From a virus (taxonomy: Duplodnaviria; Heunggongvirae; Uroviricota; Caudoviricetes), in the IMG/VR virus record IMGVR_UViG_2545824714_000009: a DNA stretch of 7,977 nt. One strand, given 5' to 3'. The position numbers were made by a program, and so were the translations under genes. The notes below the pieces were generated by a model. That model was not told the DNA's origin. It was given only the letters and a program-made list of their open reading frames with translations, and searched no databases. Below, piece after piece: positions 1 to 7,763 of the stretch. Numbering within the stretch: position 1 is the first letter of the stretch; every line of letters starts with the position of its first letter.

Positions 1-583
<583 letters not shown>

Positions 584-3137: not shown

Positions 3138-3830
3138 TTAATTATGTCTCTTAAGGGTTTGCGACTGACTGATTAAGACCTTTCCAAAGACCATGAATCG
3201 GTGTTCGTTTTCGCTAGTAATTCCCCATTCACGGTAAATCTGGTTATCAGAAATCACCAGCAGTTTGTCAGGAATCATTTGAAGTCTTTTAACGTATATT
3301 TTGTCATCAAAACCAAAGACATATATACCATCACCATCAAACTGATTGATGCTGACATCAACGAAGATGAGATCTCCGGGCTCAATGGTTGGACACATAC
3401 TGTCCCCACGAACGTTGATAACTTTGATGTGATTGGCTGGTCGTCCGCCGAACATTGATACAGCATTATCAGTTCTGTATTCGATGGCATGAATCACATC
3501 AATGACATCACCGCCCTGGATAAGGCCATTTCCCGCACTGGCACTGATATCCAGCATTTCAATACGGAACACATCCTTCACCTGCGCAACATCCTCATTA
3601 TTACTGTTTTTATATACAGTATTACTTTTGTGGGCAGAGGTAAAGAGATCAGCAATATCAACACCTAAGCTCTTGGCAATATTACTCAGTGTTTGTTCGG
3701 TAAATTGTTTTTGCTTACCCGTTTCTAAGCGCGAGATGTTCGCCGCATCTACTCCTATCGCTTCAGCGAGATCGGCGATTTTCATGTTCTTCGCTTGGCG
3801 AAGTTGTCTGACTCGGTTTCCTATGTTCAT
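3138..3830 (-). CDS. cI: CI-like prophage repressor: N-terminal XRE-type HTH plus C-terminal S24 (LexA-like) autopeptidase domain
   Basis: 230-aa ORF. N-terminus RVRQLRQAKNMKIADLAEAIGVDAANISRLETGKQ is an XRE-type HTH; there is an Ala-Gly candidate cleavage site (SASAGNG), a catalytic Ser in GDSM and a Lys in YVKRL. It is divergent from a Cro-like gene. No SD upstream; the -10/-35 spacing suggests a leaderless mRNA. Confidence 0.9.
   Translation of the reverse strand: MNIGNRVRQLRQAKNMKIADLAEAIGVDAANISRLETGKQKQFTEQTLSNIAKSLGVDIADLFTSAHKSNTVYKNSNNEDVAQVKDVFRIEMLDISASAGNGLIQGGDVIDVIHAIEYRTDNAVSMFGGRPANHIKVINVRGDSMCPTIEPGDLIFVDVSINQFDGDGIYVFGFDDKIYVKRLQMIPDKLLVISDNQIYREWGITSENEHRFMVFGKVLISQSQTLKRHN
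3602..3621. promoter_or_regulatory. Near-consensus LexA (SOS) box located inside the cI coding sequence
   Basis: TACTGTTTTTATATACAGTA matches the E. coli LexA box consensus TACTGTATATATATACAGTA at 18 of 20 positions, with intact CTGT-N8-ACAG. It is the only CTGT-N8-ACAG in the window and encodes TVYKNS in the CI inter-domain linker. Confidence 0.45.
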
Positions 3831-3927: not shown

Positions 3928-4188
3928 ATGCAATCACCATTACGAAATGTGCGTAAGGCGCATGGTTTCACTTTGCAGCATGTTGCTGCGGGTGTTCAAG
4001 TCAATCCAGCGACGTTGAGTCGTATTGAGAGGCTGGAGCAGATTCCATCTATCGAGCTTGCAGAACGTTTAGCCAATTTTTTTAAGGGTGAAGTCAGCGA
4101 AATGCAGATTCTTTATCCGGCACGTTTTCAATCTAGCCAAAACCAGAATGGGTTTAAACCACAGGAACAGGAGGTGAACCGTGGGTAA
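3928..4188 (+). CDS. cro: Cro-like HTH regulator (86 aa)
   Basis: ATG at 3928 with GGAGG 5 nt upstream. N-terminal HTH (GFTLQHVAAGVQVNPATLSRIE); divergent from the CI-like gene across an operator-bearing region. Confidence 0.8.
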   Translation: MQSPLRNVRKAHGFTLQHVAAGVQVNPATLSRIERLEQIPSIELAERLANFFKGEVSEMQILYPARFQSSQNQNGFKPQEQEVNRG

Positions 4189-4732
4189 GCATCACTGGAA
4201 AGTAGAAAAACAGCCTGAGTGGTACGTGAAAGCTGTCAGAAAAACTATCGCAGCGTTGCCGGGGGGGTACGCTGAAGCTGCTGACTGGCTGGATGTAACA
4301 GAGAACGCATTATTTAACCGCCTTCGTGCCGATGGCGATCAGATTTTCCCGCTGGGATGGGCAATGATTTTGCAACGTGCTGGTGGAACTCACTTCATTG
4401 CTGACGCTGTGGCGCAGTCTGCAAATGGCGTCTTTGTGTCTCTTCCTGATGTCGAGGATGTGGACAACGCCGATATCAACCAACGCCTGCTGGAGGTCAT
4501 TGAACAGATCGGCAGTTATTCAAAACAGATTCGTTCAGCAATCGAAGACGGTGTAGTGGAACCGCATGAGAAAACTGCAATTAACGACGAGCTATATCTC
4601 TCAATTTCGAAGCTGCAGGAGCATGCAGCACTGGTCTACAAAATCTTTTGCATTTCAGAAAGTAATGACGCCCGCGAGTGTGCAGCTCCGGGCGCCGTGG
4701 CGTGTCGTGACTGTGGAGAAACTAACGCATGA
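4181..4732 (+). CDS. CII-position early protein (183 aa); possibly YdaT/CII-like regulator, with a C-terminal Cys cluster
   Basis: GTG start at 4181 preceded by AGGAGGT with a 5-nt spacer, overlapping the cro stop by 8 nt. Sits directly after cro. C-terminus contains CxxxxxxxCxxC ([12 protein letters not shown]). Family assignment is from recollection and context only. Confidence 0.7.
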
Positions 4733-5067
4733 ACAGTTTAACAACACACTACCGTCGCTCGCAACTGATTGCGCTTCCTGTACCGGGTGGAAAAGCGAAG
4801 GTGGAGTATTGCTATGCAGTAAATGTACCAGGTGACAGGGAAATTGTAACCCACAGCTTTGCAGAGTGGGCTGTGGGTGATTTCAACCGGCAGAAGGAGA
4901 CAGTCCTTTGCGACAAGTTAACCGCTGGTTCAAAGATCACTACGGAGTGCCCGTCAGAGTCATTCGTTGGGAACCGGAAACACAACGGGTTATCTACCTC
5001 CGCGAAGGCTATGAGCATGAGTGCTTCAGTCCGCTCGAACAGTTTCGTCGTAAATTCAGGGAAATAG
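4729..5067 (+). CDS. Hypothetical early protein with likely disrupted reading frame (frameshift candidate or two overlapping small genes)
   Basis: ATG at 4729 overlaps the upstream stop (ATGA). The first ~63 codons look protein-like (…[38 protein letters not shown]), then the frame becomes Ser-rich. The other frame from ~4908 to 5087 reads as genuine protein ([54 protein letters not shown]) and has AAGGAG 9 nt before a TTG at 4908. Confidence 0.4.
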
Positions 5068-5076
5068 AGGTCGGTC

Positions 5077-6018
5077 ATGAGCACTAAATTAACCGGCTAT
5101 GTATGGGATGGTTGCGCAGCGTCAGGCATGAAATTATCCAGCGTGGCAATTATGGCCCGCCTGGCTGATTTCAGTAATGACGAAGGTGTGTGCTGGCCAT
5201 CAATTGAAACCATTGCCCGTCAGATTGGCGCGGGGATGAGTACCGTCAGAACGGCTATCGCACGGCTGGAAGCAGAAGGCTGGTTAACGCGTAAGGCGCG
5301 TCGCCAGGGTAACCGCAATGCGTCGAATGTTTATCAGCTTAACGTTGCGAAGCTTCAGGCAGCGGCATTTTCTCAACTGTCAGATTCTGACCCGTCAAAA
5401 TCTGACGCATCAAAATCTGACCCGTCAAAATTTGATGCGTCGAAATCTGGCAAAAAAGCGGGTTTTCACCCGTCAGAATCTGGCGGGGATCCGTCAGTAA
5501 AATCAAAACATGATCCGTCAGATAAAAAAACTTCTCGTCCGGACGCTTCGCAACCGGACACGCAGACGGCTGAACAGGAGTTTTTAACTCGCCATCCTGA
5601 TGCGGTTGTATTCAGCCCTAAAAAGCGCCAGTGGGGAACGCAGGATGATTTGACCTGCGCACAGTGGCTCTGGAAAAAAATCATCGCCCTGTACGAGCAG
5701 GCCGCCGAATGTGACGGCGAGGTGGTTCGTCCCAAAGAACCGAACTGGACAGCCTGGGCAAACGAAATTCGCCTGATGTGTGTGCAGGATGGTCGTACTC
5801 ATAAACAAATCTGCGAGATGTACAGCCGCGTCAGTCGCGATCCGTTCTGGTGCCGTAACGTGCTCAGCCCGTCGAAGCTGCGGGAAAAATGGGATGAGCT
5901 TTCCCTGCGCTTATCGCCGTCCGTCAGCACGTACACCGAAAAACGCGAAGACCCGTACTTCAAAGCCAGTTACGACAACGTGGACTACAGCCAGATCCCG
6001 GCAGGATTCAGGGGGTGA
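5077..6018 (+). CDS. Phage replication initiator: N-terminal winged-HTH domain, internal repeat region, DnaT-like C-terminal domain
   Basis: 313-aa ORF with GAGG 7 nt upstream. N-terminus (…WPSIETIARQIGAGMSTVRTAIARLEAEGWL) is HTH-like. The C-terminus ends …DYSQIPAGFRG, resembling the C-terminal end of E. coli DnaT as I recall it (…SQIPPGFRG). An iteron array lies inside the gene, as in lambda O. Confidence 0.85.
   Translation: MSTKLTGYVWDGCAASGMKLSSVAIMARLADFSNDEGVCWPSIETIARQIGAGMSTVRTAIARLEAEGWLTRKARRQGNRNASNVYQLNVAKLQAAAFSQLSDSDPSKSDASKSDPSKFDASKSGKKAGFHPSESGGDPSVKSKHDPSDKKTSRPDASQPDTQTAEQEFLTRHPDAVVFSPKKRQWGTQDDLTCAQWLWKKIIALYEQAAECDGEVVRPKEPNWTAWANEIRLMCVQDGRTHKQICEMYSRVSRDPFWCRNVLSPSKLREKWDELSLRLSPSVSTYTEKREDPYFKASYDNVDYSQIPAGFRG
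5386..5530. repeat. Iteron array plus A-rich tract inside the replication gene: candidate origin of replication
   Basis: 15-bp periodic units TCTGACCCGTCAAAA / TCTGACGCATCAAAA / TCTGACCCGTCAAAA / TTTGATGCGTCGAAA (5386-5445), with further CCGTCAG cores at 5470, 5491 and 5515, followed by GATAAAAAAAC (5521-5531). The coding-level equivalent is a DPSKS/DASKS pentapeptide repeat. Confidence 0.65.
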
Positions 6019-6509: not shown

Positions 6510-7162
6510 TGAGTAATAAATATTGCCAGGCGCTGGTGGAACTGCGGAACAAACCAGCCCATGAACTGAAGGAAGTGGGCGATCAGTGGCGCACGCCGGA
6601 CAACATTTTCTGGGGAATTAACACCCTGTTTGGCCCGTTTGTTCTGGATCTGTTCACTGACGGTGATAACGCCAAATGTGCCGCGTATTACACGGCGGAA
6701 GACAACGCGCTGGCGCATGACTGGTCAGAACGTCTTGCGGAGCTTAAAGGTGCTGCCTTTGGTAATCCCCCATACAGCCGCGCCAGTCAGCATGAGGGGC
6801 AATACATCACCGGCATGCGTTACATCATGAAACATGCCAGTGCCATGCGTGATAAGGGCGGGCGCTATGTTTTCCTGATCAAAGCTGCCACCAGCGAAGT
6901 GTGGTGGCCGGAAGATGCAGATCATATTGCTTTTATTCGCGGGCGTATTGGTTTTGAACTGCCTGTCTGGTTTATCCCGAAAGACGAGAAGCAGGTACCG
7001 ACAGGAGCTTTTTTCGCTGGTGCTATTGCTGTTTTTGACAAGACCTGGAAGGGACCGGCAATCAGCTACATCGGGCGCGATGAACTTGAGGCATGTGGTG
7101 AGGCGTTTCTGGCGCAGGTTCGCCAGCAGGCGGAAAAACTGGTCAGGGAGATGGCGGCATGA
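6509..7162 (+). CDS. Phage Dam-family DNA N6-adenine methyltransferase (orphan; no restriction partner in window)
   Basis: ATG at 6509 overlaps the upstream TAA (translational coupling; alternative GTG at 6476). Contains the NPPY catalytic motif (FGNPPYSR) and WRTPDNIFWG…FVLDLFTD, typical of phage Dam-type methyltransferases. Confidence 0.85.
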   Translation: MSNKYCQALVELRNKPAHELKEVGDQWRTPDNIFWGINTLFGPFVLDLFTDGDNAKCAAYYTAEDNALAHDWSERLAELKGAAFGNPPYSRASQHEGQYITGMRYIMKHASAMRDKGGRYVFLIKAATSEVWWPEDADHIAFIRGRIGFELPVWFIPKDEKQVPTGAFFAGAIAVFDKTWKGPAISYIGRDELEACGEAFLAQVRQQAEKLVREMAA

Positions 7163-7485
7163 CGACGTTAACTCAATGCCAGCAGCAGGTGCTGGATATG
7201 CTGATTTCTTATCAGAAAGAACGTGGCTTCCCGCCAACCAATCAGGAGGTGGCAACCATGCTGGGATACCGTTCGGTGAATGCAGCGGTGGAGCATCTTC
7301 GCGCACTGGAGAAAAAAGGCGTCATCACGATAAAGCGTGGCGTGGCCCGGGGGATAACGCTTCATACCGCGGTGAAGGACGACGACAGCGAGGCGGTCGG
7401 GATTATCCGCGCACTGCTTGCCGGTGAGGAAAACGCAAGGCTGCGTGCAACCCACTGGTTACATGAGAGGGACCTGAAAGTATGA
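7159..7485 (+). CDS. LexA N-terminal DNA-binding-domain homolog lacking the S24 autocleavage domain (108 aa)
   Basis: ATGA overlap with the Dam stop; AGGGAG 8 nt upstream. LTQCQQQVLDMLISYQKERGFPPTNQEVATMLGYRSVNAAVEHLRALEKKGVITIKRGVARGITL aligns closely with E. coli LexA residues ~5-70 ([65 protein letters not shown]), including the recognition-helix SxNAAxEHL. The following ~40 aa have no Ser/Lys peptidase motifs. Confidence 0.8.
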   Translation: MTTLTQCQQQVLDMLISYQKERGFPPTNQEVATMLGYRSVNAAVEHLRALEKKGVITIKRGVARGITLHTAVKDDDSEAVGIIRALLAGEENARLRATHWLHERDLKV

Positions 7486-7763
7486 AGCTGATCCTGCCTT
7501 TTCCGCCCAGCGTGAACACGTACTGGCGACACCCCAACAAAGGGGCGTTTGCTGGTAAGAGCCTGATAAGCGCGGCGGGGCGAAAATTCCAGAGCGCGGC
7601 GTGCGCAGCAATAGTTGAGCAGTTACGTCGTCTGCCGAAACCAACGTCGGCACCTGCTTCAGTGGAGATCGTGTTGTTTCCTCCGGATAGACGGGATGGA
7701 AAACCGCCGCCATCGCCTGAACTGGGAAATGAGCCGGGACAGGTGTTTGCGGCTTGGCAGTAA
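7482..7763 (+). pseudogene. rusA: RusA-like Holliday-junction resolvase, N-terminal ~72 aa only; catalytic DxD region missing
   Basis: ATGA overlap with the upstream stop. LPFPPSVNTYWRH…VEIVLFPPDRR matches the RusA N-terminus (LPWPPSNNRYYRH…IRIECHMPDRRRRDLDN), but after PDRRD the translation becomes GKPPPSPELGNEPGQVFAAWQ, lacking the catalytic Asp residues. This is consistent with an IS junction near 7698. Confidence 0.6.

Follow-up and report, generated by a model that had tools for sequence, protein, structure and literature searches.

The SfiC division inhibitor has been sought since 1983. The ymfM gene of the Escherichia coli K-12 prophage e14 was reported to encode this SOS-associated inhibitor, and expression of the ymfM open reading frame (ORF) blocks Z-ring formation (bioRxiv 10.1101/2020.11.19.390815). 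The present analysis concerns a window of 7,977 nucleotides (nt), by which the whole stretch of DNA that was analysed is meant (IMG/VR virus record IMGVR_UViG_2545824714_000009, Caudoviricetes); gene order and sequence matches identify it as an e14-like lambdoid prophage of E. coli. ORF A of the window is the same gene as ymfM and stands in the same place, after ymfL. The published gene was described as one protein of 112 amino acids (aa), whereas A appears here as a domain of ~58 aa followed by an unconstrained tail, with a nested gene of the DUF4222 family, ORF B.

RgdR (ECs1581), encoded by prophage CP-933C/Sp7 of enterohaemorrhagic E. coli (EHEC) O157:H7, acts positively on LEE1 and type III secretion and negatively on motility, and its binding to DNA is non-specific (PMC3378721, PMC10877973); its RGD motif is important for the activation of type III secretion (PMC3378721). 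RgdR itself matches DUF4222 (E = 2.1e-23), and alignment of B with RgdR by hhalign (probability 96.8%, E = 3e-10, 43% identity over 47 columns of the core) marks the two as homologous. Both also lie immediately 5' of the replication gene of their element. RgdR differs in its length (99 aa, with N- and C-terminal extensions that are missing from the 59-aa B) and in its carrier, a P4-like rather than a lambdoid element. No RGD tripeptide was found in B, which has HYG there instead, in the sequence D-H-Y-G-V around an invariant Gly13. In E. coli O157:H7 Sakai, rgdR (ECs_1581; L337:13305-13604) shares 4 nt with the beginning of the primase gene ECs_1582; taken with the layout of the window, this places DUF4222 genes directly 5' of the replication gene in both P4-like and lambdoid elements.

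With coupled gene chains (those of the trpE-trpD type and those of the nin and early operons of lambdoid phages) the locus shares the proximity of stops and starts: ymfL and A meet in an ATGA, and the stop of A lies 9 nt before the replication ATG at 5077. It differs from them in that the coupling ORF crosses a whole, independently initiated gene, and in that the openness of this ORF is conserved rather than its sequence; the coupling itself is putative. As in lambda Rz/Rz1 and in the E-in-D and B-in-A pairs of phiX174, a gene is nested in another in a different frame and on one transcript. Both frames are constrained in those pairs, whereas the outer frame shows only stop avoidance here. The -1 frame relation and the Shine-Dalgarno (SD)-like element by the junction recall the -1 frameshift sites of dnaX and of lambda G/GT, and at dnaX frameshifting is stimulated by SD-like elements. 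Here, however, a slippery heptamer is missing, the downstream frame begins with a conserved start of its own, and the upstream frame is open far beyond the junction.

Two reading frames between ymfL and the replication gene

An earlier note on this DNA had described protein-like translation that runs first in frame 1 and then, from about 4908, in frame 0, and had left the choice between a 1-nt indel, a sequencing error and two genuinely overlapping small genes. Both ORFs were recovered from the sequence (A, 4729-5067; B, 4908-5087; Table 1), as were the AAGGAG just before the TTG start of B (4894-4899, spacing 8 nt) and the flanking genes, of CII type upstream (Phage_CP76) and of replication type downstream (HTH_36). 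The two-frame signal was well above chance (DUF4222, E = 8.6e-19 for B; phrog_20047, E = 5.5e-43 for the N-terminal 60 aa of A), and the substitution pattern followed frame 1 to ~4907 and frame 0 beyond. A and B, which lie in the early rightward operon of the prophage and overlap out of frame by 160 nt, are very probably two real genes, separated by neither a mutational nor a programmed frameshift. The last of the three options was thus the one borne out, by a conserved layout and by purifying selection on both units.

Loci for comparison were taken from IMG/VR by homology to B alone. The 318 that were usable contained 200 different B sequences, which fell into 40 clusters when grouped at 85% nucleotide identity; read-through of B by A was seen in 31 of these clusters and was missing from the other 9. 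Ratios of non-synonymous to synonymous substitution rates (dN/dS) are Nei-Gojobori estimates from codon alignments of diverged loci.

B matched DUF4222 (PF13973) with 67.3 bits against a cut-off of 27, over positions 3-52 of the 53 in the profile. In its own frame it gave a dN/dS of 0-0.36, with dS ranging from ~0.85 to saturation between diverged clades. AlphaFold2 modelled it as a five-strand barrel plus a helix (predicted local distance difference test score, pLDDT, 84), and the predicted fold is that of a Tudor/SH3-like barrel. In every locus compared, the start codon was ATG, GTG or TTG at one aligned position; where A is of ymfM type, it lies 180 nt after the start of A, in the same -1 frame, and in most related clusters an SD-like purine-rich sequence precedes it. 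A TGA in frame 0 (4878-4880) closes that frame 27 nt before the start of B, and B can therefore have no start upstream of 4881. As judged from these sequences, translation of B begins independently, at the TTG at 4908 and with an SD of its own; that the downstream frame has a conserved initiation site is contrary to its expression as a fusion only. A small hairpin at 4893-4910 (GAAGGA/UCCUUU) could pair the SD of B with the first bases of the TTG. This 6-bp hairpin (AAGGA/UCCUU) had a regional z-score of -1.1, and its pairing was not conserved in other clusters.

A matched phrog_1170 over residues 1-112 (E = 6.3e-70) and was 95-98% identical to 112-aa YmfM proteins in the databases, which have the same position between ymfL and the replication gene; homologues down to ~45% identity are 112-117 aa long. 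The N-terminal domain, which matches both phrog_20047 and phrog_1170, gave a dN/dS of 0.24-0.56 in the A frame (~60 codons, loci with a homologous N-domain), and in 78 E. coli-type copies it held 17 synonymous and 7 non-synonymous variants. Residues 1-66 were modelled by AlphaFold2 with modest order, as three strands and two helices (pLDDT 54-71). NCBIfam and PDB sequence searches returned nothing useful. An exhaustive HMMER search gave multi-stretch matches of residues 19-50 (4783-4878) to Flg_new, the Listeria-Bacteroides repeat (e.g. P0214, 13 stretches); these were rejected and probably reflect compositional or beta-hairpin similarity.

In RefSeq, as annotated by PGAP, only B is present (WP_001250269.1, identical to ORF B) and 4733-4907 is left blank, K-12 derivatives included. 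That view, in which A would be a spurious long ORF, agrees with the lack of a Pfam or NCBIfam match for A. It is very improbable given the dN/dS of the first 60 codons of A, where variants fall mostly at third positions, the conserved ATGA by which A starts on ymfL, and the occurrence of stand-alone homologues of the A domain (53-68 aa). The avoidance of stops in the tail, described below, is likewise sensible only if A is translated.

The segment 4650-5150 was 100% identical to E. coli O6:H16 strain 2014EL-1346-6 and was present at >=80% coverage in ~2,000 of 5,426 complete E. coli genomes. The arrangement is carried by the active temperate phages SfII, SfIV, mEp460 and PhiR49 and by Klebsiella phages, and it was found in diverged enterobacterial loci too. 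The same layout in ~2,000 genomes, in active phages and in 31 diverged clusters speaks against a sequencing error. An indel pseudogene was contradicted by homologues at ~40-45% identity, which keep two ORFs with both units (in the case of A, the N-terminal part) under purifying selection.

A single ancestral gene of ~120 aa, split into a pseudogene by the gain or loss of 1 nt or by a sequencing error, would find a trace in rare database proteins that fuse the N-terminal part of A with DUF4222 (P0031, P0053, P0059, P0065 and P0090). The junction differs in each of these proteins, however, and they come from very few contigs; such fused ORFs are sporadic indels or assembly errors and not the ancestral state. 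The identical two-frame layout is otherwise shared by thousands of genomes and by functional phages and survives to 40-45% identity, the frame-0 stop at 4878-4880 and the conserved start at 4908 oppose a single ancestral ORF, and the relaxation of a pseudogene was not seen, dN/dS being far below 1 for both the N-domain of A and B. The split gene is hardly credible on this evidence.

Programmed -1 ribosomal frameshifting, by which the N-terminal domain of A would be linked to the DUF4222 domain, had been thought unlikely for want of a slippery heptamer, and that judgement stood. B does lie in the -1 frame relative to A, with a strong SD-like AAGGAG immediately upstream of the junction. No X XXY YYZ heptamer in the frame of A was found in the overlap of the window, though, and none was conserved over the 31 clusters, 8 of which have sporadic, non-homologous heptamers near the far end. 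A start codon at a fixed position would also be superfluous for a frameshift product, and frameshifting at the junction does not need a frame of A that stays open for 150 nt past it. Frameshifting is thus extremely improbable. A search for a frameshift element in Rfam gave no family at gathering thresholds. The CTT TGC at the junction, superficially like the CUU UGA of a prfB-like site, was considered and rejected because a +1 shift there leads into the third frame and not into that of B.

Selection on the tail of ORF A

Across the overlap, dN/dS was 0.9-3.3 in the A frame and 0.6-2.2 in the third, non-coding frame (both where dS was non-zero). In the 78 E. coli-type copies, 13 of the 14 segregating sites of the overlap were at third codon positions of B, which are second positions of A; these copies had been picked for B identity, and the contrast in the overlap is thereby inflated. 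All four bases occur at the four-fold sites of B, and the residues that result in the tail of A are unrelated; residues 67-112 of A had a pLDDT below 50 in AlphaFold2. The signature of a dual-coding pair was missing: dS of B was saturated, and no lower than that of the N-domain of A, and the tail gave the dN/dS quoted above. By these measures the 52-codon tail of A is free of amino-acid constraint, and it is predicted to be disordered. The continuation of frame 1 had been called Ser-rich and unconvincing, which is correct for the tail as a protein. The continuation itself is no neutral read-through, as the distribution of stops makes clear.

A first stop test was made on loci found by long A ORFs, and was for that reason biased; it was redone on the loci chosen by homology to B. 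The synonymous codons of each B were resampled from the usage of the flanking genes, and stops were counted in nt 25-155 of B. By the raw criterion of an upstream +1 ORF, 32 clusters were included; on inspection A was found to stop at the start of B in one of them (L199), leaving 31. In the +1 frame, 0 stops were observed against 53.2 expected with locus-specific usage (32 clusters) and 0 against 51.4 with pooled usage (31 clusters). Zero +1 stops were seen in 32/32 clusters, where 4.2 such clusters were expected. The +2 frame, used as a control, held 86-91 stops against 82-88 expected, and flanking genes submitted to the same procedure gave observed/expected ratios of 0.90 (+1 frame) and 1.00 (+2 frame).

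The avoidance depended on context. Val and Leu codons of B that stand before an A were never NTG or NTA (0/64), whereas before a pyrimidine 34% were NTG. Val18 and Val28 of B were encoded by GTC or GTT exclusively in the read-through clusters; GTG before A does occur in clusters in which A ends at the start of B. Stops avoided in a sequence that is otherwise free to vary indicate that the tail of A is translated and that its interruption is selected against. The polymorphism of E. coli is weak evidence when taken alone: of the 95 B-synonymous changes, 10 would create a stop, and the variants seen number 14 (P ~0.2). Truncated A proteins were considered as tolerated nonsense mutations and rejected; they are uninformative, because they arise from rearrangement junctions, frameshifts or contig ends.

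At codon 51 of B (Leu; 5034-5036), CTG was likewise missing from the read-through clusters (0/29), in which only CTC and CTT were used; a G after CTG would produce TGG, which is no stop, in the frame of A.

A compositional or ascertainment artefact could also leave the frame across B open. The first loci did come by way of long A ORFs, permutation of the codons of B gave a probability of an open frame of 0.1-0.74, the codon-aligned antisense frame is often open as well, and clusters without read-through are partly depleted of stops too. The permutation null is conservative, however, since B already lacks the codons that are avoided. Stops were still completely absent when loci were selected through B alone, both the +2 frame and the flanking genes agreed with the null, NTG was missing only where a stop, or TGG, would arise, and GTG before A was used where A stops early. 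Very little weight is accordingly given to an artefact. As for the antisense strand, a 90-aa ORF (4812-5084, minus) crosses the overlap in the codon-aligned antisense frame of B. In the 31 clusters this frame held 5 stops against 14 expected, being low in stops by construction, and the ORF is most likely a by-product.

Flanking genes and annotation

The features of the unit and of its surroundings are collected in Table 1. The replication gene gave weak matches to DnaD_N and RP-C besides HTH_36, and in related phages it is labelled replication protein O or primosomal protein. It is followed by a PerC-like gene, Dam, a protein with a LexA N-terminal domain and a truncated RusA.

Table 1. Coordinates of the ymfL-ymfM-DUF4222-replication unit and of adjacent features in the window
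Feature	Position	Strand	Remarks
CI-like repressor	3138-3830	minus	gene-order survey
Cro-like helix-turn-helix (HTH) gene	3928-4188		gene-order survey
ymfL, CII-position gene	4181-4732	+	Pfam Phage_CP76, E = 1.5e-13; RefSeq annotation ymfL
ORF A = ymfM	ATG 4729 to TAG 5065-5067	+	frame 1, 112 aa
ORF A, conserved N-terminal domain (~57-60 codons)	4729-4907	+	frame 1
ORF A, tail (52 codons + TAG 5065-5067)	4908-5067	+	frame 1, crosses ORF B
SD of ORF B, AAGGAG	4894-4899	+	8 nt upstream of TTG 4908
ORF B, DUF4222 (RgdR-family)	TTG 4908 to TAA 5085-5087	+	frame 0, 59 aa
Replication-gene junction	5067-5079	+	GAGG 5067-5070 overlaps the TAG of A; 6-nt spacer; ATG 5077
Replication-initiator-type gene (O-position)	5077-6018	+	same frame as ORF A; Pfam HTH_36, E = 4.2e-11

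At the left end of the window, 100-285 (+) encodes a C-terminal fragment of an IstB helper ATPase of the IS21 insertion sequence (IS) family (Pfam IstB_IS21, E = 7.8e-24, profile 188-238 of 238), which is an IS remnant, and a DUF2303 (YfdQ-like) gene lies at 711-1535 (-; E = 9e-92). To the left of ~2100 the window departs from the otherwise identical NZ_CP024232 locus, in which an IS21-family element sits there; the comparison indicates that the flanks left of ~2100 are mosaic or rearranged.

Downstream, 7159-7485 (+), placed 3' of Dam in the early operon, encodes a 108-aa protein with a LexA DNA-binding domain alone (LexA_DNA_bind, E = 2.9e-19), without the S24 peptidase domain; such a protein might interfere with the regulation of SOS boxes. 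The ORF at 7482-7763 (+) has a RusA-like start and no Pfam match. In the identical region of NZ_CP024232 the RusA gene lacks its C-terminus and is followed by an IS66 element, and the prophage therefore appears truncated and defective.

Phage records vary in annotating A, B or both, and PHROGs has separate families for the 112-aa form, the 63-aa form and B. The 112-aa YmfM is listed in EcoCyc and UniProt. A and B are themselves already in databases; what appears to be new is that both genes are real, that YmfM consists of a conserved domain and a tail free in sequence but kept free of stops, which ends at the replication gene, and that the identity of SfiC is ambiguous.

A possible role for the tail, and the identity of SfiC

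The TGA of ymfL (4730-4732) overlaps the ATG of A, and ACGCATGA was found at this ATGA junction in nearly all related clusters. At the other end, the stop of A comes before the replication ATG, at the distance given above, and that of B 8 nt after it, in a junction of the type TAG-AGGTCGGTC-ATG. In all 31 read-through clusters the stop of A either preceded the replication ATG by 3-18 nt (usually 9) or followed it by 8 nt; in the downstream type it is the stop of B that forms an ATGA with this ATG. The position of the stop of A was kept even where B is 213-228 nt long and extends well into the replication gene. In two loci that have lost most of B (L007, Entomohabitans; L008, Atlantibacter), A still ends on the replication ATG. 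An alternative natural layout, in which a 53-aa A, B and the replication gene follow one another through two ATGA junctions, was found in L199, L222 and their relatives. What these layouts have in common, as read from the sequences compared, is that translated ORFs are linked without interruption from ymfL up to the replication gene, with stops that overlap the next start or lie within about 20 nt of it, as in a coupled gene chain.

A and the replication gene are in one frame, parted by the TAG at 5065-5067 and three codons, and this TAG arises in B at GAA ATA GAG, in which the Ile codon ATA is a rare one. If the amber codon were suppressed or read through, a fusion of YmfM and the replication protein would result. 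All clusters of this junction type keep the two genes in one frame, a relation that the frame of B may force.

We propose that A starts on the stop of ymfL, encodes the conserved ~58-aa domain and continues in frame 1 through B, which would be nested in the chain of translation as a separately initiated gene. What matters in the tail would then be the act of translating it and not its sequence. The tail would serve as a ribosome relay, by which translation that begins in ymfL passes by way of A to the replication gene without a break; the relay could act through coupled termination and reinitiation, or by shielding the mRNA from Rho-dependent polarity. Inside the unit neither a promoter nor a forward-strand terminator was found. 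Taken as a whole, two overlapping genes, a stop-free tail and a putative relay are probably the best explanation of the locus; the relay mechanism itself, which is drawn from geometry and selection, is put forward tentatively, as a possibility somewhat short of an even one.

Several points weigh against the relay. The clusters in which A stops at B are also depleted of +1 stops (7 observed against 17-20 expected), which may come from shared ancestry or from another pressure. The clusters are phylogenetically non-independent, although synonymous sites of B are saturated between clades. The replication gene owns a GAGG SD, and folding gave no significant RNA structure masking its start (z = 0.23). 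Ribosomes leaving B also terminate near the replication ATG, so that the need for those of A is not obvious. Finally, a requirement on the length or the composition of the tail as a protein is possible. The partly depleted set comprises L199, L222, L203, L212, L223, L197, L182, L189 and L193; within it, L182 and L189 are at expectation for +1 stops and the clusters of LLDRYY type are depleted.

The last point leads to the reading in which the full 112-aa YmfM is functional and stops are avoided because the tail is needed as a protein, be it as a disordered linker, a degron or a part of SfiC. Cells that express the ymfM ORF become filamentous and lose their Z rings (bioRxiv 10.1101/2020.11.19.390815), and the tail has a conserved length of ~50-57 residues from which stops are excluded. 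The tail is nevertheless without amino-acid constraint, since variation at the four-fold sites of B is free and changes the tail residues radically (dN/dS >=0.9); its length is set by that of B, and natural A proteins without a tail exist (53-78 aa). A functional 112-aa protein is therefore unlikely. The published phenotype, moreover, is attributable to no single frame, the clone including the SD, the start and 53 of the 59 codons of B.

The same holds for the rest of the evidence on SfiC. Fragments or the entire 339-nt ORF were used in that work and in earlier screens, the ymfM deletions remove both genes, and no protein was detected and no frame-specific mutant made in these studies (bioRxiv 10.1101/2020.11.19.390815, PMC3614548, PMC6206680). 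Because the constructs and the deletions span both frames, the assignment of SfiC to ymfM is ambiguous. In a literature search no paper linking ymfM with DUF4222 was found. If the ~50-codon tail is a relay in which sequence is irrelevant, a corollary would be that SfiC is the RgdR-family protein or the ~58-aa N-domain and not the 112-aa YmfM; this combination is advanced more cautiously still than the relay.

For annotation, a conflict present in thousands of genomes is resolved: both genes are real and both deserve annotation. The locus is a clean and statistically strong natural example in which the continuity of an ORF is selected and the sequence that it encodes is not, and it calls for caution with gene finders and with dN/dS tests of overlaps, as a translated frame can look non-coding by every protein measure. 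The identity of SfiC is reopened, every ymfM clone or deletion so far having also carried or removed a conserved gene of the RgdR family, whose members have pleiotropic regulatory effects. If the relay is true, translation itself would be the function of the tail, by coupling or by protection from polarity, in the early operon of a phage.

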